Below are positions 13,960-24,170 of a stretch of 24,170 nt of DNA, piece after piece. A program made the position numbers and the translations under genes. Source of the stretch: a virus; the IMG/VR virus record IMGVR_UViG_3300002092_000032, positions 1-24,170 of that record; one strand, given 5' to 3'. The notes beneath the pieces were generated by a model. It saw only the letters and a list, made by a program, of their open reading frames with translations. It searched no databases and was not told the DNA's origin. Within the stretch, counting starts at the first letter, position 1. Every line of letters begins with the position of its first letter.

Positions 13960-15942
13960 TTACAATCCGCCCAATGCTAAGATAAACGGAGTCATCTGAG
14001 CAAACAAACTTTGATAGAAGTAATCACCAGTGATAACCCCAGTAGCTTGATTAATAGTAAATCCTAGACCGACTTTAAAGTTACCTTTTTGGTCGGTACT
14101 TGTAAATGTTATCACGCCACCGTTCGTTGCTATGACTTCATTAGCTTCAATTGGTATACCGCCGTATTGAGGTAGTGCAGTTGCAGGATTAGTTCCGGCG
14201 CCCACATATTCAAATGTATGGGCACTTGCTATAATTGAGCTACGCACATAGAATGAAACATTTTTACCAACAACAGGGGTTTCTGTGTTATAAACTTGCT
14301 GTATGACTACTGTTGACTGTCCTGCGATAGGTTGATTGGGTGCAATCGTATCAATCGTATAATACTCTGGATCATCTTGTATTACCATAATAGTATTAAC
14401 GTGAGGTTGACCGTTTGATAGGTTATTGAGTACAAAGATACCTTGATATTCAGAAACTATAGTGCCGGTAGTCTGCAATGGACCATATCCATCTGCTACT
14501 AGACCATAGTTACCGATTGAACAGTCACTCCCGTTCAAAGTGCAGAATGCACCAGACTCTACTTTGATACCTATGTCACACGCAATAGTATAGATGTTAA
14601 CCAGCTGACTGTAGCCTGTATTCAAGATATGAATACCTTTACCACCTCGGTTGATGATAGTAAAGAAACCAACAATCATTGCCTTAGTACTGATGCTACT
14701 GACATTAGCGCCGTCAATGTAGACCGCAGTACCAGTTGTAGTAGATGAGGTCAGATTTTGAATATAAGGACTCACGAACACATTTTGCGTAGGTGTCGCC
14801 GGGTCAAAACTAAATCCATTAGCAGTATAATTTCTGATCGTGATGCCCCAAACATAAGATCCGCTACGCACATAGAATAAGTCAGCAGACGGAGTTTGTG
14901 GTATTACTGTAACATTTCGTAGATTGTCGCCCATCAATGCTACGTTAGCTGGTATAGTAATAGGATTTGCTTCTGTATATGTTCCCGGAGCCACGTGAAC
15001 GGAAAATCCGCCCGCTGAAGCAGCATTCAATGCAGCCTTGATTGTTCTATAAGGTTTGTTAATGTCACCGTTGTTAGCGTCATCTCCGTTAGTTGCTACA
15101 TAAAGTATTTTAGCACTAGTGTTAAATGTCATCGGGGTGCCGTTACCGATGAAATTGCTAGCAATGATGTTGCCGGTAGCATCAACAGTTCCATTACCAA
15201 ATGTAACGTTTGAAGTTGCATTGCCTACTGTTAATCCAGTAAGTGTACCGACTGAGGTGATGTTAGGTTGTGCATTATTTGTTACATTACCAGCATACGC
15301 TGCATAGTTTGCATTCTCTACATTTCCCGTAACATTACCAGCATACGCTGCATAGTTTGCAGTTACTGCATATGCGGCATTTGCTACGGTACCGGTTACA
15401 TTAGAACCTGCGATATTGCTTAGATTCCCACCTTCGCCTGATATGTGAGGTGCTGTTAATAAATTGGTAGTTGAGTCAAACGTGAAGCCCGAACTACCAG
15501 CAAAGTTGCCAGCATTATTATATTGAACTTGCGTGTTCGCGCCGCCCGGAGTGGCGTTGCCGCCACCATTACCGGTCTGTGCAGTCCAACTTAGATTACC
15601 TGCACCATCTGTTTGTAATACATATCCATTAGTGCCGCCACCGATACTAATATTAGACACGCTGCCTAAGGATAAGATATTGCCATTCCAAGTTACGTTT
15701 GGAATTCCGCCAAACGTTCCACCACTATTAAATTGTAGTTGGGTATTTGTTCCACCGGCAGTACCGATAAACGGTGCACCATTGGCTAGCTTGTAGTAAG
15801 TCGCATAGACTACATTAGCGGTAACATTACCAGTAGTGTTTACATTAGTAACGACGTTAGCGTTACCGTCAACTACTGGAACCGGAGGAATGCCTACTGA
15901 GAAACCACCAACCGAATTAAATGTATTTGCTGTTGAAGTCAT
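13960..15942 (-). CDS. Tailspike/fibre protein with a pectin-lyase-like parallel beta-helix domain (660 aa)
   Basis: LYVATNGDDANNG...PYRTIKAAL...VHVAPGTYTE..PITIP..VALMG is the typical N-cap of right-handed beta-helix domains; the N-terminal half shares fibre repeats and the FNSVGGFSVG motif. Confidence 0.75.
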   Translation of the reverse strand: MTSTANTFNSVGGFSVGIPPVPVVDGNANVVTNVNTTGNVTANVVYATYYKLANGAPFIGTAGGTNTQLQFNSGGTFGGIPNVTWNGNILSLGSVSNISIGGGTNGYVLQTDGAGNLSWTAQTGNGGGNATPGGANTQVQYNNAGNFAGSSGFTFDSTTNLLTAPHISGEGGNLSNIAGSNVTGTVANAAYAVTANYAAYAGNVTGNVENANYAAYAGNVTNNAQPNITSVGTLTGLTVGNATSNVTFGNGTVDATGNIIASNFIGNGTPMTFNTSAKILYVATNGDDANNGDINKPYRTIKAALNAASAGGFSVHVAPGTYTEANPITIPANVALMGDNLRNVTVIPQTPSADLFYVRSGSYVWGITIRNYTANGFSFDPATPTQNVFVSPYIQNLTSSTTTGTAVYIDGANVSSISTKAMIVGFFTIINRGGKGIHILNTGYSQLVNIYTIACDIGIKVESGAFCTLNGSDCSIGNYGLVADGYGPLQTTGTIVSEYQGIFVLNNLSNGQPHVNTIMVIQDDPEYYTIDTIAPNQPIAGQSTVVIQQVYNTETPVVGKNVSFYVRSSIIASAHTFEYVGAGTNPATALPQYGGIPIEANEVIATNGGVITFTSTDQKGNFKVGLGFTINQATGVITGDYFYQSLFAQMTPFILALGGL

Positions 15943-15959
15943 ATTTTATACCTTTATAT

Positions 15960-16029
15960 TATTTAGCAATTACTGTTCATTTAAAACCCGCAAAATAGCA
16001 TATTTTAAGAACAGAGGAGAGACTAAATA
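15960..16029. promoter_or_regulatory. Divergent pair of late promoter-like elements: GCTAAATA (minus, 15960-15967) and ACTAAATA (plus, 16022-16029)
   Basis: TAAATA cores upstream of both divergently oriented start codons (15942 minus, 16035 plus). Confidence 0.5.
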
Positions 16030-16034
16030 ACAAC

Positions 16035-16400
16035 ATGCACACTCAACAGCCACATAGACCTATATGCACTCACTGCAACTTTTCTCTAGCCAAACCAAAC
16101 GGCAAGAGCAAACATGGTTTCCAACAATGGCATAGATATTGCATTGACTGTGCTAAAGCGATCTACAATGATAGATTCAAACACCTACAGCACAAGAAAA
16201 TGATATGCGAGGATTGTGACTTTGTACCAGAAGATAAGGTTCAGCTAGACCTTGTTTTCAGAGATGGTAACAAGAGTAATAAATCAAAGAATAATCTCTT
16301 GACATTGTGTGCTAATTGTGCTAGACTATATAATAAGAAAATGCGTACAGGACGCAAGTCAATTCTCAACGCTACCGTAGACGGTGACACTAGGATTTGA
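16035..16400 (+). CDS. Zinc-binding HNH-like protein, probably catalytically degenerate
   Basis: Four CxxC pairs (CTHC, CIDC, CEDC, CANC); QLDLVFRDGNKSNKSKNNLLTLCANCAR follows the HNH pattern but lacks the usual His residues; the only credible plus-strand gene. Confidence 0.7.
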   Translation: MHTQQPHRPICTHCNFSLAKPNGKSKHGFQQWHRYCIDCAKAIYNDRFKHLQHKKMICEDCDFVPEDKVQLDLVFRDGNKSNKSKNNLLTLCANCARLYNKKMRTGRKSILNATVDGDTRI

Positions 16401-17183
16401 CTATTCGTGCGTTATCTCCATAATATGGAGAGACGGAAGAAAATGATAATCATATTGCTTGTGGATCGCATCTTCAATGCCTTCAGGGATTTTAGAGAGA
16501 ACATCAGGTATTTCCCATGCATAAACGGATTCATGCTCTTTTCCTGATGCTATTGCTTCCATTCTAAGATGATTTGTATATTTAAAAATCAAATCCTTGA
16601 AGTAATCTGTTATTTTTAGCCCAGAGCCTTCTAATATTTTTTCTGCTTTGGGTAAGGTAAGCCCTTCAGGTTCAGCACACTCAAATAGCAAAATTATCCC
16701 GTCTTCTTTTAAATTTTTCTTTATATTTGCAAAGAAATCCTTATGACTTTTCCACCCGACATCTATAGCTATTCTTTCAATGTCAGGGTTAGAACGATAT
16801 GCTCTAGTCATTGTTTCATCGTAGAAAGGGGGATCACTTACAATGAGATCAAATTTACCTTCTAGATTCTTAACTGTATCACTATGAACAATATTGACTT
16901 TATCTTTCCAATCATTATTAGGAAACAGTTGTGTTTTGATAGCATCTTCACATGCTTCAGCATGTTTTTCAAGTAAGGTGACATTGTTGCAAATTCCAGA
17001 TTCTAGAATGCTGTATCCTATAAATCCGGGCCCGGCACACCATTCTAAACAGTCATCAAATACCCTATCAGGATACCGATGTTTGAGATAGTGAATATAA
17101 TCTTGTCCAAACCATATACCGCCACCGTTATTTTTTGAACTGAAAAAAACAGTTTTAGAATTGATTTTAAACTCTTCTATCAT
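16401..17183 (-). CDS. Class I SAM-dependent methyltransferase (HemK/MTS-like)
   Basis: Motif I LEWCAGPGFIG, acidic residue after the next strand (TLLEK), motif IV FDLIVSDPPF. Confidence 0.8.
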   Translation of the reverse strand: MIEEFKINSKTVFFSSKNNGGGIWFGQDYIHYLKHRYPDRVFDDCLEWCAGPGFIGYSILESGICNNVTLLEKHAEACEDAIKTQLFPNNDWKDKVNIVHSDTVKNLEGKFDLIVSDPPFYDETMTRAYRSNPDIERIAIDVGWKSHKDFFANIKKNLKEDGIILLFECAEPEGLTLPKAEKILEGSGLKITDYFKDLIFKYTNHLRMEAIASGKEHESVYAWEIPDVLSKIPEGIEDAIHKQYDYHFLPSLHIMEITHE

Positions 17184-17191
17184 GATTTGCT

Positions 17192-17722
17192 TTAGGATTT
17201 AATGAGGTGCCAGGGTTCTTCTTTAAATCTTAGGCTGATTGATCTTCTCCAATTAGGACCATCATTTCTCACGCAATGAGAGACACTGTGGTTGAAAATA
17301 ATCGGCCTAGTCAACGTAAATTCGTCAATCTTTCTACAGTCTTCATGTTTATGGTATCGGGTAGCTTGGCTCGGAATGTCACCCACCTGAGGAGTATACC
17401 ATAGAGAAGGTTCTATATCACTCTCCCAGAATTCAGTCACTGCTGTTTCGCAATTCTCTAATGGAATATTCAATGCCAGCCCTGGTGGCAAATTCCAATC
17501 TCCGTCTTGATGTATCACGCCTGGAGCCATTGGAGGGGATTGTATCAAGAATGTCTGTTTCAACTCCAGTCCCATAAAGTGAGTGACATCTAATTTTAAC
17601 CATTGAAAATATGAGAATGGTTCTCTAACATATTCAGTGATAGCTGCTCTATACAGATTCTGCATATTGATGACCTCTTCTTCAGGGGGATCAATATACT
17701 GCCATATGAAATCTTTTATCAT
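17192..17722 (-). CDS. Putative 2OG-Fe(II) oxygenase / double-stranded beta-helix protein
   Basis: HxD (IHQDG), ALNIP strand, distal His (SHCVRN) and RRSISLRF motif. Confidence 0.65.
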   Translation of the reverse strand: MIKDFIWQYIDPPEEEVINMQNLYRAAITEYVREPFSYFQWLKLDVTHFMGLELKQTFLIQSPPMAPGVIHQDGDWNLPPGLALNIPLENCETAVTEFWESDIEPSLWYTPQVGDIPSQATRYHKHEDCRKIDEFTLTRPIIFNHSVSHCVRNDGPNWRRSISLRFKEEPWHLIKS

Positions 17723-17740
17723 TTTTTTCGTTATATAAAA

Positions 17741-18208
17741 TTATAGTGAATATGGATAATTTGTATCCGGAGAAGCGATGATCGTTACTGGAAAATTATA
17801 TGTTCCGGTGGCAAAAGTTTTATATGTAGAATCAGTAGGATCTAGCACAAATGCCCATATAGGTTGTGTGTTGAAGAAGTTATTGATGAATCCACACCAA
17901 ACAGGTGTAGTAGAATATGTACTTCCTTCACTCCATACTGCTGTGTAAATATATGTACCAGGGAAATTTTTGCCGATACTCATATTAGCAACTGTATTTG
18001 CTTGATCGGCTGTCAGTAACATCATAAAAGCAGAGCCAGTAACATCAGGAAGAACTGACTTTGGTGGTATACTATTCGGATTGATTATCACAATCCCGTT
18101 TCCATTCTTACCTGCACCAGGCGTTTGATCTGAGGTGAACACGACCTGAGAATAATCAATCACTAAAGTTTCTGCTGCATCTAATTGTTCTTGAGTTAAG
18201 TCTGTCAT
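17741..18208 (-). CDS. Hypothetical protein (155 aa)
   Basis: AGGAG Shine-Dalgarno and TAAATA elements upstream; no recognisable motif. Confidence 0.7.
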   Translation of the reverse strand: MTDLTQEQLDAAETLVIDYSQVVFTSDQTPGAGKNGNGIVIINPNSIPPKSVLPDVTGSAFMMLLTADQANTVANMSIGKNFPGTYIYTAVWSEGSTYSTTPVWCGFINNFFNTQPIWAFVLDPTDSTYKTFATGTYNFPVTIIASPDTNYPYSL

Positions 18209-18240
18209 AATGTTCTCCTAATTGACAAATTCTTTCTTTT

Positions 18241-18267
18241 TATTTATCAAAACTGCTGATATTTATA
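18241..18267 (-). promoter_or_regulatory. Tandem late promoter-like elements: TATAAATA (18260-18267) and GATAAATA (18241-18248)
   Basis: Exact T4 late consensus plus a variant in the intergenic gap upstream of 18208. Confidence 0.55.
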
Positions 18268-18792
18268 TTATTCCGCACGGACAAGTTGCCATGGATTTTC
18301 TTTGAATCGCAAGCTGATTGATCTTCTCCATTTGGTATTAGGAGTGTTGTCCACACTATGCAATACACTCGCATTCCATATAATAGGACGATCTAAGATA
18401 AACTTGTCTATCTCAATGCAATCTTCAAGATCATATGAAGTAGAAAGTATTCCGCTTTTAAGAGGCACCATCTTTGGTTTTTTATCTGTTTTGTAAAAAC
18501 GTGTATAGATGTTTTCGCAATTCTCTATCGGAATGTTTATCACCGCATTGGGTTTACCATCAAGATGTCCATTACCATCAGTGTGTATGACAACACGTTC
18601 ACCCGGAGGACACTGAATCAGAATGGTTCTTGCCAACTCAAGACCTAAAAAATGAGTAACACCTATGTCAAATGGTTGGAATCCCCAGTCGTTCCCCTCC
18701 CACTTAGCCAATGCATCTTTGCATCTACTTTGAATGTCCGATGCGATGTCGTCGGCGACATCCAAATATTGCCAGATAAAATCTGATGGCAC
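18268..18792 (-). CDS. Putative 2OG-Fe(II) oxygenase, paralog of 17192..17722
   Basis: IHTDG, INIPIENCE, LHSVDN, WRRSISLRFKENPW; shares DFIWQY, VTHFxGLEL and RPII with the paralog. Confidence 0.65.
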   Translation of the reverse strand: MPSDFIWQYLDVADDIASDIQSRCKDALAKWEGNDWGFQPFDIGVTHFLGLELARTILIQCPPGERVVIHTDGNGHLDGKPNAVINIPIENCENIYTRFYKTDKKPKMVPLKSGILSTSYDLEDCIEIDKFILDRPIIWNASVLHSVDNTPNTKWRRSISLRFKENPWQLVRAE

Positions 18793-18793
18793 G

Positions 18794-19354
18794 CTACATC
18801 ACCGGATCAGTTATCACTAGGACATTCCCACGCATCATGATATTCTGGCCATGAAGGTCTAGTTCATATGTGGGTGTCAACTTATCAGCGATGAGATCAC
18901 ATGCTGCTTTTATTCCAGGTTGATACTTTTCTATCATGTTCATCTGCTTTTCTCTATATTCATCTGGTGCAGCCGACATGTAGTTTTCCATAGTCCTACC
19001 TATCGTTAGTGGATTACCTAGCTCAGGTATCTCTACAGCAGGTGTCAATCGCTCTATCTGTATCGCATGATACTGGTTAGTGACTCTAATCAGCCTTCCC
19101 TTGAATACAGGAAAATGTATATTTTTGTTTTTCATCACCAGATCAATAAAAGCCATATAAGCAGTGTCTTTAGACTTAAAGAGTTTTAATACATGATCAG
19201 CACCGGGTCTTGCATAGACTTGAGCAAATACTGCATCATTCTTGTCTAGTCTCTTATATCCAGCCTTGAAGAGTATATACTCAGCCATTATCAATGGCGG
19301 CCTGGTTATCTCATTCAAGACTTTTAATTCGGTTAGGAATTCAAATGCTCTCAT
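18794..19354 (-). CDS. Protein kinase-like protein resembling the T7 gp0.7 Ser/Thr kinase domain
   Basis: GYKRL...VFAQVY, VLKLF (ATP-binding Lys), IERL, catalytic loop DLHGQNIM and terminal ITDPV, matching the gp0.7-type D(M/L)HxxNIM...ITDPV pattern. Confidence 0.75.
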   Translation of the reverse strand: MRAFEFLTELKVLNEITRPPLIMAEYILFKAGYKRLDKNDAVFAQVYARPGADHVLKLFKSKDTAYMAFIDLVMKNKNIHFPVFKGRLIRVTNQYHAIQIERLTPAVEIPELGNPLTIGRTMENYMSAAPDEYREKQMNMIEKYQPGIKAACDLIADKLTPTYELDLHGQNIMMRGNVLVITDPVM

Positions 19355-20958
19355 TTGTTTCTCTCAGCCGCCATTTTCACTTCTTCTGATGGATTGTTGA
19401 TGTAACGAATCACCCAACCATCTTTTTTAACAGCAGCCATCTGCACTTCTTCTGATGGATTCTTGATGTAACGAATTGCATATCCAGTTTCTTGAACAGC
19501 AGCCATCTGCACTTCTTCTGATGGATTCTTGATGTATTGAATCATCCGACCATTTTGTTGAACAGCAGCCATTTTCACTTCTTCTGATGGATTCTTGATG
19601 TAATGAATCACCCAACCATCTTTTTTAACAGCAACCATCTGCATTTTTTCTGATGGATTCTTGATGTATTGAATCGCCCGACCATCTTGTTTAACAGCAG
19701 CCATTTTCACTGCTTCTGATGGATTCTTGATGTATTCAATCGTCCGACCATCTTGTTTAACAGCAGTCATCTGCATTGCTTCTGATGGATTGTTGATGTA
19801 TTGAATCGCCCAACCATCTTGTTTAACAGCAGCTATCTGCGCTTCTTCTGATGGATTCTTGATGAAACGAATTGCCTTCCCATTTTGTTTAACAGCAATC
19901 ATCTGCAATGCATCTGATGGATTATTGATGTAACGAATTGCTAATCCAGCTCGTTTAACAGCAGCCATTTTCACTTCTTCTGATGGATTATTGATGTATT
20001 GAATCACATACCCATTTTCTTGAACAGCAGCCATTTTCACTGCTTCTGATGGATTCTTGATGTATTCAATCGTCCGACCATCTTGTTTAACAGCAGCTAT
20101 CTGCGCTTCTTCTGATGGATTCTTGATGAAACGAATTGCCTTCCCATTTTGTTTAACAGCAATCATCTGCAATGCATCTGATGGATTTTGGACGTAACGA
20201 ATTGCTAATCCTTCATGTTTAACAGCAGTCATCCATTTATCTTCCGAAAATAGATTATATACCGTAATTACTTGTTTAGGACTTAATCGTTCATCTCGTT
20301 CATCCATGAATTGTGCAGATTCAAAATGAAATTGCCATTTTACCCCTGATCCACGGAATATGATGTCATATAGAGGACCTCGTCTGCTATAGTACTTGAA
20401 CCGATTATCTTTATCCCCTGCTGTACACCAGCGGGTGCCACGCCCATAATATTTGGCTGCTTCTTTGGTCTTCGGAATCATGATCTTTAATGCACCAGTA
20501 TCTTTATACAGGACTGCTTGACCTGACTTGATTAGACTTTCTTCTTCGGCTGCTTTCTCCTCATTACCGGTCTTCTTTTCAGCATACTGATCCATCAAGT
20601 TCAATAACAAATTCATACTTTTGAATTTATTGATGTCTCTTTGGTCAGTGGGGATCCTGCCGCTCTGCGTTAATTTGGCATATCTGGTCAATGGATCAGT
20701 CAACTTAGATAGGTCTTCAACGAATCTAATACCACCATTTGGATCAACAAACCTAGATATGATCCATTTGGTATATTTGGAATTAGTAGTCGGATCAATA
20801 TTATTGGCTATATATTCAATGAACTTAGCTGGATCGTCTTTCATAGAAGACCCTTGCGGATCTTTGGCCAACTTAGCCATAAGTTGTTGGCCGAATCTAC
20901 CTGATGTGGCTTCAATCGCGGCTGGACTCAGTGCTTCAAAAAGTTCTTGTAGACGCAT
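19351..20958 (-). CDS. Phage protein (535 aa) with a globular N-terminal region (GTRWCTA motif) and about 13 C-terminal 22-aa helical repeats (DUF4116-like)
   Basis: Start reassigned to the ATG at 20958 (MRLQELFEA), 4 nt after TATAAATA; repeat consensus NPSEEVQMAAVKQDGxAIxYIK; ATGA overlap with the kinase gene. Confidence 0.8.
   Translation of the reverse strand: MRLQELFEALSPAAIEATSGRFGQQLMAKLAKDPQGSSMKDDPAKFIEYIANNIDPTTNSKYTKWIISRFVDPNGGIRFVEDLSKLTDPLTRYAKLTQSGRIPTDQRDINKFKSMNLLLNLMDQYAEKKTGNEEKAAEEESLIKSGQAVLYKDTGALKIMIPKTKEAAKYYGRGTRWCTAGDKDNRFKYYSRRGPLYDIIFRGSGVKWQFHFESAQFMDERDERLSPKQVITVYNLFSEDKWMTAVKHEGLAIRYVQNPSDALQMIAVKQNGKAIRFIKNPSEEAQIAAVKQDGRTIEYIKNPSEAVKMAAVQENGYVIQYINNPSEEVKMAAVKRAGLAIRYINNPSDALQMIAVKQNGKAIRFIKNPSEEAQIAAVKQDGWAIQYINNPSEAMQMTAVKQDGRTIEYIKNPSEAVKMAAVKQDGRAIQYIKNPSEKMQMVAVKKDGWVIHYIKNPSEEVKMAAVQQNGRMIQYIKNPSEEVQMAAVQETGYAIRYIKNPSEEVQMAAVKKDGWVIRYINNPSEEVKMAAERNK
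19365..20230 (-). repeat. 66-nt tandem coding repeat, about 13 copies
   Basis: tctgatggatt(c/a/g)ttgatg recurs every 66 nt; 13 NPS motifs in the translation. Confidence 0.9.
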
Positions 20959-20962
20959 TATG

Positions 20963-20970
20963 TATTTATA
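20963..20970 (-). promoter_or_regulatory. T4-type late promoter TATAAATA
   Basis: Exact consensus, 4 nt upstream of the ATG at 20958. Confidence 0.7.
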
Positions 20971-21076
20971 GTTCTTTACAGTTATTACCGTGCCAACGCG
21001 CATAACCATTCACTGCAACATCTTTACCACAATGTGGGCACTGTTTCTTCTCACGCTTTGTACCACGTACCGCTTC
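20966..21076 (-). pseudogene. Remnant 3' end of a homing-endonuclease-type gene (contains repeat copy A, core 20971-21001)
   Basis: Start-less frame EAVRGTKREKKQCPHCGKDVAVNGYARWHGNNCKEL*; CPHC...RWHxxNCK is a C-terminal zinc-finger motif common in phage HNH/GIY-YIG/NUMOD3 endonucleases. Confidence 0.7.
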
Positions 21077-21077
21077 A

Positions 21078-21446
21078 TTATTCAAACAGTCTGCGGGCCC
21101 GTGCTGTGGTAGCAACTTCATTCAGAACCTTGATATTCTTTTTAACTTCAGCAACATCTTCTTCTACATATGGATTATAAGCTTTAAAATCTCCACCGTG
21201 GCCAAGTTTGATATGACACTCGGTAGTTTTATTCATGCATAGTGTGATGAGATTTGTAGGTTCTAGTTCCAACTCCGGATGAAGATGAAATGGTTTCATA
21301 TGATGCACGTTCAGTCTGTTGGACGAACCACATGCAGCACAGGTTGAATGTTCTTTCAGGAACTTATTTTCAAGTGCTGGCCATTTAGAACTTCTTTTGG
21401 TGGTGATGCCGGCAGCTGCATCTCTGGTCTTTGTACTTTTGTCCAT
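21078..21446 (-). CDS. Small HNH endonuclease
   Basis: CAACG...LNVHHMKPF...NLITLC...CHIKLGH; AGGAG upstream. Confidence 0.8.
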   Translation of the reverse strand: MDKSTKTRDAAAGITTKRSSKWPALENKFLKEHSTCAACGSSNRLNVHHMKPFHLHPELELEPTNLITLCMNKTTECHIKLGHGGDFKAYNPYVEEDVAEVKKNIKVLNEVATTARARRLFE

Positions 21447-21466
21447 GCGAGGTAACTCCTATAATG

Positions 21467-21508
21467 TACTTAGCGTTCTTTACAGTTATCACCGTGCCAA
21501 CGAGCGTA
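21467..21508 (-). repeat. Cassette-boundary repeat copy B with promoter variant GCTAAGTA
   Basis: gttctttacagttatcaccgtgccaacgagcg at 21475-21506, identical to copy C; reads YARWHGDNCKER* on the minus strand. Confidence 0.9.
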
Positions 21509-21522
21509 GACTTTAACGACAT

Positions 21523-21804
21523 TTAGGTAGAAATGTGTTCTTGTATTGATTGATACAAATCCAGTAGTCCATCGTAAACCTTGTCAAAATCGGGGTCTCC
21601 CTCTAAATTTTGCCAAGTAGCATCAGTTAGCAACTCATGCACATAGCTTCCAAGTTGCAATACATTATTTTTCCCTCGAAACTTGTTAGTATCATTGATA
21701 AACTGTTCAAATGCACGATAGTATGAGTCAATGTTTATTCCGTGTATTGCCCAGTAAGTTTTTATATGATCTTCTGTTTCATATAGTATTTCAATGATCT
21801 TCAT
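21523..21804 (-). CDS. Hypothetical protein (93 aa), possible internal head protein
   Basis: Begins MKIIEILYE; overlaps the end of the upstream 49-aa ORF. Confidence 0.7.
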   Translation of the reverse strand: MKIIEILYETEDHIKTYWAIHGINIDSYYRAFEQFINDTNKFRGKNNVLQLGSYVHELLTDATWQNLEGDPDFDKVYDGLLDLYQSIQEHIST

Positions 21805-21940
21805 TATCGGTTTTCATCTCTTGTATAGCAGACTCAACAAAGTTATTTAACTCTTCAACTTTTTGTTGCAGTGTTTTTAGTGTTCCGTCTTCATTTAAGG
21901 TGTTGCTAGGTGTTTCTTTGTATAGTTTTATGTTTTTCAT
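21791..21940 (-). CDS. Small acidic hypothetical protein (49 aa), absent from the ORF track
   Basis: MKNIKLYKETPSNTLNEDGTLKTLQQKVEELNNFVESAIQEMKTDNEDH*, preceded by a TAAGGA Shine-Dalgarno and ATTAAATA. Confidence 0.65.
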   Translation of the reverse strand: MKNIKLYKETPSNTLNEDGTLKTLQQKVEELNNFVESAIQEMKTDNEDH

Positions 21941-21957
21941 GCTATTGTTCCTTATGA

Positions 21958-21997
21958 TATTTAATGTTCTTTACAGTTATCACCGTGCCAACGAGCG
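21958..21997 (-). repeat. Cassette-boundary repeat copy C with promoter variant ATTAAATA
   Basis: 32-bp core at 21966-21997 identical to copy B; reads ARWHGDNCKEH*; begins 1 nt after the stop codon at 21999. Confidence 0.9.
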
Positions 21998-21998
21998 G

Positions 21999-22451
21999 TC
22001 AGTATTTTTCAACCTTGACTATCTTTGCAGATGGAGTTAGGTATTCCCAGACAACTTCATTAGGACTTTCTTCACCTGACCAATACGCTTCAGCGGCATC
22101 TTTTATTTCATCACTGTCTAATGGAAAACCAAGATCAACTAATGAACTTATTTCAGATAACCAATTCATGTCATGACGCTGTACTTCGCCGATCGGAACA
22201 ACTGTAAATAACCAATCCGTCGCTGCTCCGGCAAGATCAACATCATCCGGGTTATCACACATAAAAACACTTTGCTTATGAGCTAATTTATCGGTGGGGC
22301 GATACATTTCAATTGCGGCGTAGAAATTGGTATCCTGCCAATCATTCTCATAGTCGTCTCTCGGTGTTAGAATAGTACCTACCGGAAGTTCGTTATAACT
22401 ACCGTGATAGTAGTGATTCACTGATTCAGTTATGATTTCTGTGATACGCAT
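21999..22451 (-). CDS. Putative ADP-ribosyltransferase (Arr-like ART fold)
   Basis: YYHGSYNELPVGTILTP resembles the Arr-family FxHG(T/S)...L.VG..L motif; later SVFM, LFTVVPIG and WEYL segments fit the ART strand order. Confidence 0.55.
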   Translation of the reverse strand: MRITEIITESVNHYYHGSYNELPVGTILTPRDDYENDWQDTNFYAAIEMYRPTDKLAHKQSVFMCDNPDDVDLAGAATDWLFTVVPIGEVQRHDMNWLSEISSLVDLGFPLDSDEIKDAAEAYWSGEESPNEVVWEYLTPSAKIVKVEKY

Positions 22452-22456
22452 GATTG

Positions 22457-22488
22457 TATTTATAGTTCTTTACAGTTGTTACCGTGCC
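22457..22488 (-). repeat. Cassette-boundary repeat copy D with late promoter TATAAATA (22457-22464)
   Basis: 22455-22488 tgtatttatagttctttacagttgttaccgtgcc matches 20961-20994 at 33/34 positions; reads HGNNCKEL*. Confidence 0.9.
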
Positions 22489-23006
22489 TAGCTATCCATT
22501 GAAAAAGTTATAACTTGATATTGAATATCTTTATTTACTCCGCCATCGTTGAATATCTCAACATCAGGAAGACGACCTATACCACGATGATCTGGATCCT
22601 TATTTACATATATTGATTCCCGAACACATTGCAGTAGACGTTTAAAAGTAGGATTATATATGATTTCTGATTCATATGGTCCGTGCCAAGTAACTACAAT
22701 AGTCGGTAAGTTGTTACATATCGCTTTTTCAAATGCAACGATCTCGTCATCAGGAATCGGATCATAGTAATCTGGAAGACCAGTTAAGTACCAATACAAA
22801 CTTTGTTTTTCCCACCGTGCTTCACCTCGCCCACGTGGTCTATCTGCTTTGGCTAACTCTCCTCTGGTCCAGCCAGCGGATTTAAAATACGCCATTAGGT
22901 CCTTATACGACGACCAGTTAGTGCTAAAATAATGATTTCTTACCACATCCAATGAATCTCGCTTGAGGTGTCGTATTAAATTTTCAGGTGTGATCTCTTT
23001 AGGCAT
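22488..23006 (-). CDS. Hypothetical protein (172 aa)
   Basis: GGAGG upstream; TAATG stop/start overlap with the upstream ORF; no recognised motif. Confidence 0.75.
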   Translation of the reverse strand: MPKEITPENLIRHLKRDSLDVVRNHYFSTNWSSYKDLMAYFKSAGWTRGELAKADRPRGRGEARWEKQSLYWYLTGLPDYYDPIPDDEIVAFEKAICNNLPTIVVTWHGPYESEIIYNPTFKRLLQCVRESIYVNKDPDHRGIGRLPDVEIFNDGGVNKDIQYQVITFSMDS

Positions 23007-23191
23007 TAATCCTCCATATACTCAAATCCACTAGGAATGATAACTGTGCTACCATTAGTTAGCGTGACTTCATATTCTGTTCTATCCGCACTCAGTGCTA
23101 CACTGGTACACTCATCTTCACTTATTCCATGATCAGCTAACGCAGATTTATACGCTGCTCTCATCATTTTTTCATACTGTCTACTATTCAT
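23006..23191 (-). CDS. Small hypothetical protein (61 aa)
   Basis: Likely start MNSRQYEK at 23191, in an ATGA overlap with the endonuclease stop; AAGGA upstream. Confidence 0.6.
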   Translation of the reverse strand: MNSRQYEKMMRAAYKSALADHGISEDECTSVALSADRTEYEVTLTNGSTVIIPSGFEYMED

Positions 23192-23943
23192 TTTCTTTTC
23201 CTTCCACCTAGTTGCCAACCTTGTTCTAACCATTGAGGTAGTGTGTCGGACTTAACTTTCTTTTCAGCACCGTCTTTGTTGATAGAGATGTTTCCTAATG
23301 TGGCATTACGGACGTTATCAGCATGTCCTTCTTTTTTCGCGACGCCAGTTTGAGTGAGAGACCTCTTTAGTTTTTCTTCTTCGCTCATCGGACCTTTTGG
23401 TTTGCCCTTGCTTGCGAGTGACATCTTTAGACAAGTTTCTTCTGATCTTTTTTGACCAAGTATTTTAGCAACTCGTTTTGCTTGACCTTCAGCCTGTTTA
23501 ACAGGATCTATCTTTCGGTTGCGTGTTCTTTCTCTGTGTTTTTCTAACTCTTCACCCTCAAGTTTTTGACCTTTGTTCCAGGCTGGTTTACCCTTCATTC
23601 TTTCAGAATGTAATTGAGCGTGTGCTATACGATGTTTTTCATATGCTCTTGTTATGATACGAGAATGGTATCTTTGTTGAAACTCGTTTTGGGCATTCAT
23701 TCCATTGAATGCGTATGACATTTTAACATGATCTGCGCCTTCAGTCATCTTTAACAAAGCCCAATGACAAAGTGCGTGTTCTCTTCCAGTCAGCCATACT
23801 TTGTTGGATTTGTCATCATTGCCTCCCATTGAACTAGGAATAATATGATGTCGTTCTTTGTATTGCCCTTTTGGCAATATACGATTTTTTGCTTTCTCAA
23901 CGAGAAGCATATAGTGTTTGGTGTATTTGTTATCTTTGAACAT
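23188..23943 (-). CDS. HNH homing endonuclease with NUMOD3-like basic repeats
   Basis: YKERHHIIPSSMGGNDDKSNKVWLTGREHALCHWAL is the HNH motif of phage homing endonucleases; KGKPAWNKG, RSEETCLKMS and MSEEEKLKRS are NUMOD3-like; start at ATG 23943, 5 nt after TATAAATA. Confidence 0.85.
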   Translation of the reverse strand: MFKDNKYTKHYMLLVEKAKNRILPKGQYKERHHIIPSSMGGNDDKSNKVWLTGREHALCHWALLKMTEGADHVKMSYAFNGMNAQNEFQQRYHSRIITRAYEKHRIAHAQLHSERMKGKPAWNKGQKLEGEELEKHRERTRNRKIDPVKQAEGQAKRVAKILGQKRSEETCLKMSLASKGKPKGPMSEEEKLKRSLTQTGVAKKEGHADNVRNATLGNISINKDGAEKKVKSDTLPQWLEQGWQLGGRKRK

Positions 23944-23948
23944 GATAT

Positions 23949-23956
23949 TATTTATA
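23949..23956 (-). promoter_or_regulatory. T4-type late promoter TATAAATA
   Basis: Exact consensus between the capsid terminator and the endonuclease ATG. Confidence 0.7.
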
Positions 23957-23983
23957 CATAATATCACATTCTATTATTTAAAG

Positions 23984-24015
23984 TCAAAAGAAAAGGGTGC
24001 CGAAGCACCCTTTTC
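23984..24015 (-). terminator. Rho-independent terminator with a C(UUCG)G tetraloop
   Basis: Minus strand GAAAAGGGTGC-TTCG-GCACCCTTTTC followed by TTTT, about 50 nt downstream of the capsid stop. Confidence 0.9.
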
Positions 24016-24067
24016 CATAGTTGAGTTCAGTGTATGACTTACGATTATCTCGTAAGCCATTGTATTT

Positions 24068-24170
24068 TCACTGAAAAGTAAGGTTCTGGACCGCAATTTC
24101 CCCAACATAGTCGGCAGCGTTACCGAATGACGATGCAGTATTAGTGAGTTCTATGTACCCGTAACGTGTC
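24068..24170 (-). CDS. gp23: C-terminus of a T4 gp23-like major capsid protein (5'-truncated)
   Basis: TRYGYIELTNTASSFGNAADYVGEIAVQNLTFQ*; the TRYG motif near the C-terminus is characteristic of gp23-family capsids, and a strong UUCG terminator follows. Only 33 residues are visible. Confidence 0.75.
   Translation of the reverse strand, partial: TRYGYIELTNTASSFGNAADYVGEIAVQNLTFQ

Follow-up and report, generated by a model that had tools for sequence, protein, structure and literature searches.

How did four short direct repeats, each running into a late-promoter-like box, come to stand between unrelated small genes downstream of a phage major capsid gene? The locus lies in the first 24,170 nt (the window) of the 102,345-nt viral contig IMGVR_UViG_3300002092_000032 from IMG/VR (completeness estimate 29%), and all genes treated here are encoded on the minus strand. 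The major capsid gene (genome positions 24068-25264) is located upstream of the entire repeat array and, just past the window, belongs to a portal, protease, scaffold-like gene, and major capsid order that is the same as in T4-type phages. Downstream of the capsid gene are a hairpin terminator, a TATAAATA box, a gene for a 251-aa endonuclease, small open reading frames (ORFs) of 61, 172, 150, 49, and 93 aa, a gene for a 122-aa HNH nuclease, and a gene for a 535-aa DUF4116 protein. Comparisons with related loci strongly indicate that the repeats, named copies A to D, are 'stubs', the dead 3' ends left by free-standing homing endonuclease genes of the MobE-like type. As the best explanation of the array we propose a serial replacement of endonuclease genes that left stubs and cargo genes behind, a reading to which we assign a probability of about 0.6.

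The repeats have a 24-nt core, GGCACGGTRAYAACTGTAAAGAAC, that occurs in four minus-strand copies (A, 20971-20994; B, 21475-21498; C, 21966-21989; D, 22465-22488) with no mismatches to the pattern; 100 shuffles gave no core match, and a search of the rest of the 102,345-nt contig gave no further copy. The copies share the minus-strand reading ..WHG(D/N)NCKE-x-stop, their 3' ends are in register, and the stop TAA is in each case part of a TAAATA-like box, which reads TATAAATA in copies A and D, ATTAAATA in C, and GCTAAGTA in B. The core search and translation thus confirm the in-register arrangement that a first-pass annotation of the locus had described, together with its differing 5' extents of 24, 32, 34, and 105 nt (D, C, B, and A, counted up to ..GAAC); with the stop codon counted, the copies are 29, 37, 39, and 111 nt long. 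None of these 29-111-nt fragments includes a nuclease domain (HNH motif). The final ~12 codons of the parent gene close a C2HC zinc finger, and in this lineage its stop is part of the late-promoter-like TAAATA box that serves the following gene. Copy A begins immediately behind the stop codon of the gene for the 122-aa HNH nuclease. Copies B-D retain just the final His/Cys half of the finger and have no ATG, GTG, or TTG in the endonuclease reading frame, and are therefore non-coding. Copies B and C are identical across 32 nt, copy C shares 27-28 identical nt with the intact tails of two related loci, L043 and L100, and the first base of copy D (22488) coincides with the TAG stop (22488-22490) of the 172-aa gene. 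Only about six positions vary among the four copies, too few for a comparison of synonymous and non-synonymous sites.

The peptide of copy A matches the C-termini of the PHROG endonuclease families phrog_27406 and phrog_12324. A tblastn search with this peptide identified the C-termini of MobE or 'homing endonuclease' genes in RB43, Miller, phiR1-RT, and many Klebsiella and Enterobacter T4-type phages, with 50-61% identity to the C-terminal 33-34 residues of MobE-type proteins. A degenerate DNA pattern for WHG(D/N)NCK(D/E) identified 32 IMG/VR loci where the motif mostly ends an ORF of 200-280 aa, and Pfam assigned the motif-ending ORFs to HNH or GIY-YIG (SegE-like) nucleases with NUMOD3 repeats; the HNH catalytic motif was found in the intact relatives L020, L011, L015, L123, and L133. 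The proposal of the first-pass annotation that the repeat is the 3' end of a homing endonuclease gene thus agrees with matches in PHROG, cultured T4-type phages, and IMG/VR. Since the C2HC tail is attached to both HNH and GIY-YIG nucleases, it is predicted to be a shuffled zinc-finger DNA-binding module. The intact post-capsid endonuclease genes of L043, L100, and L123 have tails that match copy A with 81-84% nucleotide identity. The ratio of non-synonymous to synonymous divergence (pN/pS) between copy A and the intact tails over 35 codons is 0.15-0.39, like that of the intact tails among themselves, a value that shows only that the finger has decayed little.

Two known endonuclease types are the natural references. 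The intact post-capsid relatives share with the MobE-type HNH homing endonucleases (PHROG 655) the HNH motif, the NUMOD3 repeats, the C2HC end, and a free-standing position between conserved genes, whereas the window copies are fragments without the nuclease domain and occupy the post-capsid slot of a jumbo-phage clade. The Seg-type GIY-YIG endonucleases (SegE-like Pfam PF19835) have the same C2HC tail as the window stubs; however, the closest matches of copy A are of the HNH type, and the window has no GIY-YIG gene. The idea that copy A is a frameshifted end of the 122-aa HNH gene was ruled out, as an 87%-identical homologue in L171 has the same stop followed by a tRNA-like sequence; the homologues in L172 and L173 also lack the finger. 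Possible microhomology was observed at the junction of the HNH gene and copy A (21076-21082), where the tRNA-like sequence of L171 (3355-3385) matches the start of copy A at ~14/17 nt.

The post-capsid position of such genes recurs throughout the clade. Vibrio phage 2.275.O (349 kb) and Pseudomonas phage PA5oct (287 kb) have capsid proteins with 66% identity to that of the contig, related IMG/VR contigs reach 300-374 kb, and the clade comprises phages of roughly 300-370 kb; DNA searches with 20900-24000, in near or distant mode, gave no match in cultured phages. A capsid protein search retrieved 80 related loci with 78-96% identity. An endonuclease gene lies directly 3' of the capsid gene in 12 of the 52 relatives having at least 1.5 kb of downstream sequence, and 9 of these 12 genes have the C2HC tail. 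The layout anticipated by the first-pass annotation (capsid gene, CPHC endonuclease gene, TAAATA box, and a variable gene) is present in L038, L043, L050, L070, L072, L094-L100, L123, L133, and others; matches to endonuclease C-termini and genes of this kind behind the capsid gene were thus both found. A search with the exact 20-nt core yielded more post-capsid endonuclease loci, including L123, which has an intact 257-aa HNH/NUMOD3 gene (phrog_655) ending in ...NGYARWHGDNCKQL with the stop within TATAAATA, followed by three kinase-like genes. A GIY-YIG domain is combined with the C2HC tail at several loci, including the post-capsid ones of L050, L094, L124, L132, and L134. The site is thus occupied in about a quarter of the relatives with this capsid protein, and its varying occupants point to a homing site at which tailed HNH or GIY-YIG endonuclease genes come and go. 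The genes behind the tail vary by relative and include kinase-like genes, a gene like that for 61 aa, a gene like that for 172 aa, and various ORFans. Relatives of the 186-aa kinase-like gene of the window (18794-19354), with 43-46% identity, come directly behind the endonuclease tail or stub in L041, in L164, and, as three copies, in L123, so that a kinase-like gene was apparently the first to follow the tail in the ancestor.

The intact endonuclease gene now resident in the window is a member of the stub-parent family with a swapped C-terminal module. The first 211 residues of its product are 88% and 61% identical to those of the L133 and L038 genes, both of which bear the C2HC tail, while past residue ~211 it has another module that is also present in L041, L058, and L164. 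It is therefore not the donor of the stub tails, in agreement with the first-pass annotation, which had set it aside because of its different C-terminus. In L041, a 93%-identical orthologue of this gene runs into a stub and terminates within it in another frame. Compared to L041, the window contains a 708-nt indel, comprising the 61-aa and 172-aa genes, that fits exactly between the endonuclease gene end and copy D; the homology of copy D to L041 spans 67 nt (90%), taking in the promoter and the initial codons of the following gene. L164 has a homologue of the 172-aa gene (85%) after the endonuclease gene and lacks copy D, the 150-aa gene, and copy C. A relative of the 93-aa gene (29% identity) precedes the stub in L164, so that the order endonuclease, 172-aa gene, ..., 93-aa-like gene, stub, and kinase-like gene is common to L164 and the window.

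Truncated tails are found in other relatives as well. Searches with the 20-nt core found a single copy in each of 49 viral and 57 metagenome stretches, and its 64 distinct contexts comprise 46 intact genes, 11 truncated tails, and 7 cases at or near contig edges or otherwise unclassified; stubs in relatives were found via an intact core, and shorter or decayed stubs are invisible to this survey. We identified seven independent short stubs (L041/L190, L134/L223, L129/L131, L140/L149, L158/L164, L124, and L126). In these seven and in copies B-D, ten short stubs in all, similarity to intact tails of the ~770-nt genes is lost 0-14 nt upstream of the Trp codon. For instance, the intact parents L123 and L133 are 85-100% identical to the stub-bearing L041 and L124, respectively, for ~500 nt downstream, whereas no similarity remains beyond a point 6-8 nt upstream of TGG. 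The layout of an incoming endonuclease gene, with or without cargo, followed by a stub recurs in L041/L190, L134/L223, L124, L129, and L164: the incoming gene is directly upstream of the stub in L041 and L134, and one to four ORFs lie between them in L124, L129, L164, and the window. L124 and L134 each have one intact tail and one stub, and stacking is thus seen in independent assemblies; four stacked copies occur only in the window. In L134 (capsid end +948 to +1000) and L223, the stub is located 13 nt past an intact GIY-YIG tail, giving two tails in tandem with nothing between, and the 3' part of this stub forms a hairpin terminator.

A history of serial replacement would account for these layouts as follows. 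In a mixed infection, an incoming endonuclease gene and the genes behind it would replace the resident endonuclease gene. The left exchange would take place within the conserved capsid gene or the 5' region of the endonuclease gene, and the right junction would form a few nt upstream of the conserved tail core, so that the resident gene would be cut to its last 30-40 nt. We propose that the stub is retained for two reasons, in that it supplies the stop and the promoter of the following gene and is the sole sequence common to otherwise unrelated neighbours. Repeated rounds would produce the observed order of endonuclease, 61-aa, and 172-aa genes, copy D, 150-aa gene, copy C, 49-aa and 93-aa genes, copy B, 122-aa HNH gene, copy A, and DUF4116 gene. 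Copy A may be the oldest stub, and presumably keeps the whole finger because its junction formed elsewhere in the tail. From these arrangements we infer that cutting by the endonucleases themselves drives the replacements, that the events followed this order, and that each stub stems from a separate invasion.

Several observations weigh against this reconstruction. Uniformly placed deletions in ~770-nt genes would almost never cluster at the Trp codon; random deletion thus fails to explain the break points, and an extra ingredient (site-specific cutting, selection, or homology-limited exchange) is needed. The core is 22-24/24 identical among the copies, and the following 17 nt, including the promoter, only 8-11/17; it is odd that the core is kept far better than the promoter part if the promoter explains retention. 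No endonuclease gene bodies are left beside copies B, C, or A. All four copies end in K-E-x (..AAAGAAC), an ending that is absent from the 49 viral stretches carrying the 20-nt core and from the metagenome contigs searched; the nearest to it is the intact GIY-YIG tail of L124. Given this common ending and the identity of copies B and C, spread or homogenisation of one unit within the lineage fits equally well, and the four successive independent captures envisaged by the first-pass annotation are accordingly not required. Finally, one metagenomic assembly is the sole source of the four-copy array.

The common ending and the B/C identity are also what would be expected if the stub, the late promoter, and in copies A and D the first ~10 codons of the next gene formed a portable block of homology, through which recombination, possibly involving excised circles, shuffled the cargo, with all four copies deriving from one unit. 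T4-type phages provide a precedent in the PeSLs, mobile cassettes of a promoter and a stem-loop by which modules are shuffled (Arbiol et al., 2010, PMC2839356; Comeau et al., 2014, PMC4122927). Like PeSLs, the window repeats are short, direct, and promoter-bearing, have unrelated small ORFs between them, lie in a hypervariable region, and border an indel between close relatives, as the 708-nt indel ends at copy D with its stub-promoter unit; the D/L041 homology that passes into the next gene fits as well. The window repeat differs from PeSLs in that it derives from the coding sequence of a selfish gene, has a late-type rather than an early promoter, lacks a stem-loop or terminator, and is tied to endonuclease turnover. 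Moreover, the copies differ in 5' extent and each adjoins the end of another upstream gene, which requires the separate formation of several junctions; in other contigs the exact core was found at most once per stretch, and homologues of the cargo genes occur elsewhere without stubs. We regard this alternative as possible, at odds well short of even.

Serial replacement could also be coupled to a role of the core itself. The tail core might be the DNA site where competing post-capsid endonucleases cut the resident endonuclease gene, each invasion leaving an immune half-site and the trailing genes of the invader. We consider this version unlikely; if endonucleases do home into one another in this way, serial invasions could be read from the stacked half-sites, which would also be a general driver of accessory-gene gain beside the capsid gene. 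The corresponding 'self-immunity' pattern, with invaders beside stubs lacking the canonical core, holds in all cases seen, yet was rejected as evidence because its chance expectation is ~27%, with ~17% of post-capsid endonucleases having the canonical core.

Still less probable, in our view, is a true domestication, in which the 24-30-nt core is kept for a DNA or RNA role, for instance as a cleavage or recognition site of competing endonucleases or as a binding site of a regulatory protein. Such a role would fit the tight clustering of break points in independent lineages, the near invariance of the core in non-coding copies next to a variable promoter part, and the identity of the copy C core to tails of phages with only ~75-82% nucleotide identity in the capsid gene; the canonical core is also missing from the incoming endonucleases beside stubs, which is not significant given its ~17% frequency. 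However, there is no direct evidence of binding or cutting, and conservation is partly built in because the stubs of relatives were retrieved by the exact core. An RNA element was rejected, as none of the four copies folds better than shuffled sequences (z -0.14 to +0.50) and the fold is neither stable nor conserved. A generic upstream promoter element was likewise discarded, since nothing core-like was found upstream of other TATAAATA/GATAAATA sites in the 102-kb contig. Constraint on the core at the DNA level in intact genes also failed: synonymous sites vary freely in the wider family, and the exact core is present in 0/20 distinct tails. A small unbiased set (window copy A, L043, and L100) shows a deficit of synonymous changes in the core that is suggestive only. 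The word 'domesticated' in the first-pass annotation thus finds no support, as no stub function emerged from RNA structure or from other late promoters, which lack the core. Chance similarity, or an assembler joining strain variants at the shared core, is very improbable: the array comes from a single metagenomic assembly and no second contig with any of the four cargo-stub junctions was found, but shuffles gave no match, the homology is to real endonuclease tails, the usual final k-mers exceed the repeats (24-39 nt) in length, an erroneous join at a repeat exchanges sequence and does not stack it, and both the two-tail arrays of L124 and L134 and the gene order shared with L164 recur in other assemblies.

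The serial replacement of endonuclease genes can be set beside other known systems. Homing endonuclease genes reportedly pass through a cycle of gain, decay after fixation, and loss, followed by re-invasion, as formulated by Goddard and Burt; decay in the window and its relatives differs in being a clean truncation at one place instead of scattered mutations. Internal-protein genes of T4 are said to be shuffled via a shared promoter and capsid-targeting leader (the work of Repoila and colleagues from 1994), and the shared unit in copies A and D similarly runs into an MRIxE(I/L)-type N-terminus like the T4 capsid-targeting sequence. In contrast to an integron-like cassette array, no site-specific recombinase family was identified among the ORFs at 18794-23943, and the repeats do not fold. 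Parallels are also provided by islands of homing endonuclease genes (HEG-islands), in which nuclease genes lie at borders of genetic exchange (Barth, Dunham, and Seed, 2023, PMC10448857). Common features include endonuclease genes beside capsid genes, interchangeable nuclease types per site, shuffling of zinc-finger modules, and cargo mobilised with the nuclease gene; however, the cargo described there consists of essential genes between intact nuclease genes, whereas the window has accessory ORFs between dead nuclease-gene ends, and clustered truncation points are not described in that paper. Thus, the parts are already known (MobE/Seg-type endonucleases, decay and re-invasion of homing endonuclease genes, PeSLs, and HEG-islands), while their combination, with zinc-finger-tail stubs as cassette borders, four deep, and a truncation point common across lineages, is not described in the literature searched.

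As dead gene ends that mark the joins of blocks, the stubs are a sequence-level trace of selfish nuclease genes remodelling a phage genome. The recurrent break point upstream of the same Trp codon offers a handle on the mechanism, be it nuclease cutting, homology-limited exchange, or selection. Should neighbouring genes travel along when an endonuclease gene is replaced, jumbo phages would have a route to new accessory genes, possibly virion-packaged ones. The tail core is also a practical marker for finding such islands in metagenomes.

Table 1. Coordinates of the repeat copies and surrounding features in the window.
Feature	Position	Strand	Evidence or remark
Major capsid gene 3' end (stop at 24068) and hairpin terminator	23985..24170	-	Left border of variable island
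Intact 251-aa HNH/NUMOD3 homing endonuclease (phrog_655), alternative C-terminal module instead of C2HC finger	23188..23943	-	Family searches, alignments
61-aa and 172-aa genes, 708-nt indel between endonuclease gene end and copy D	22488..23191	-	Comparison with L041
Copy D, shortest stub, HGNNCKEL-stop	22460..22488, 29 nt	-	Core match, translation
TATAAATA box with copy D stop, 5 nt before ATG of 150-aa gene	22457..22464	-	
150-aa cargo gene between copies D and C	21999..22451	-	
Copy C, non-coding stub ARWHGDNCKEH-stop, then ATTAAATA	21961..21997, 37 nt	-	Core match, translation
49-aa and 93-aa cargo genes between copies C and B	21523..21940	-	
Copy B, non-coding stub YARWHGDNCKER-stop, then GCTAAGTA and AGGAG leader	21470..21508, 39 nt	-	Core match, translation
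122-aa small HNH nuclease gene between copies B and A, complete at own stop, unfused to copy A	21078..21446	-	
51-codon ORF containing copy A, overlaps HNH gene end in another frame	20966..21121	-	ORF list, translation
Copy A, orphan 36-codon endonuclease tail, CPHC...WHGNNCKEL-stop, complete C2HC finger and stop	20966..21076, 111 nt	-	PHROG hits, nucleotide identity, translation
TATAAATA late-promoter-like box with copy A stop, 4 nt before ATG of DUF4116 gene	20963..20970	-	
535-aa DUF4116 repeat protein gene, first after the array, not a capsid gene	19351..20958	-	

The array is part of a longer variable region (Table 1). The distance from the capsid gene to the first tail-fibre-like gene is ~8.1 kb in the window (15942-24068), compared to ~120 nt in the relatives L045, L055, and L061, where a tail-fibre-like gene follows the capsid gene at once; the whole stretch between them is a hypervariable island. 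Part of the array is bracketed by the intact homing endonuclease gene and the small HNH gene. Searches of other contigs gave no close DNA match to the cargo genes, and no stubs were found around homologues of the 150-aa or 122-aa HNH genes elsewhere.

Many genes of the island start with M(R/K)IxE(I/L)xxE, including the 150-aa gene, the 93-aa gene, the DUF4116 gene, and kinase-like genes (window 22451, 21804, 20958, and 19354, respectively), and the same start is present in the islands of relatives (L123, L164, L124, and L129), including the three tandem kinase-like paralogues of L123. It resembles the T4 capsid-targeting leader, and the DNA homology of the repeat in copies A and D extends into such codons. 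Homologues of the 61-aa ORF (23006-23191), 39-46% identical, occur in the post-capsid islands of L132, where one lies directly behind the endonuclease gene and overlaps its stop, and of L129, where one ORF lies between; judging from this placement, the 61-aa ORF may travel with the nuclease gene. The sole plus-strand ORF of the island (16035-16400, 121 aa) has weak PHROG matches to HNH endonucleases (E ~5e-4). The DUF4116 protein is encoded with ~13 tandem 66-nt (22-aa) repeats (window 19233-20324) that are 60-87% identical to a reference copy, and some of these units recur almost exactly.

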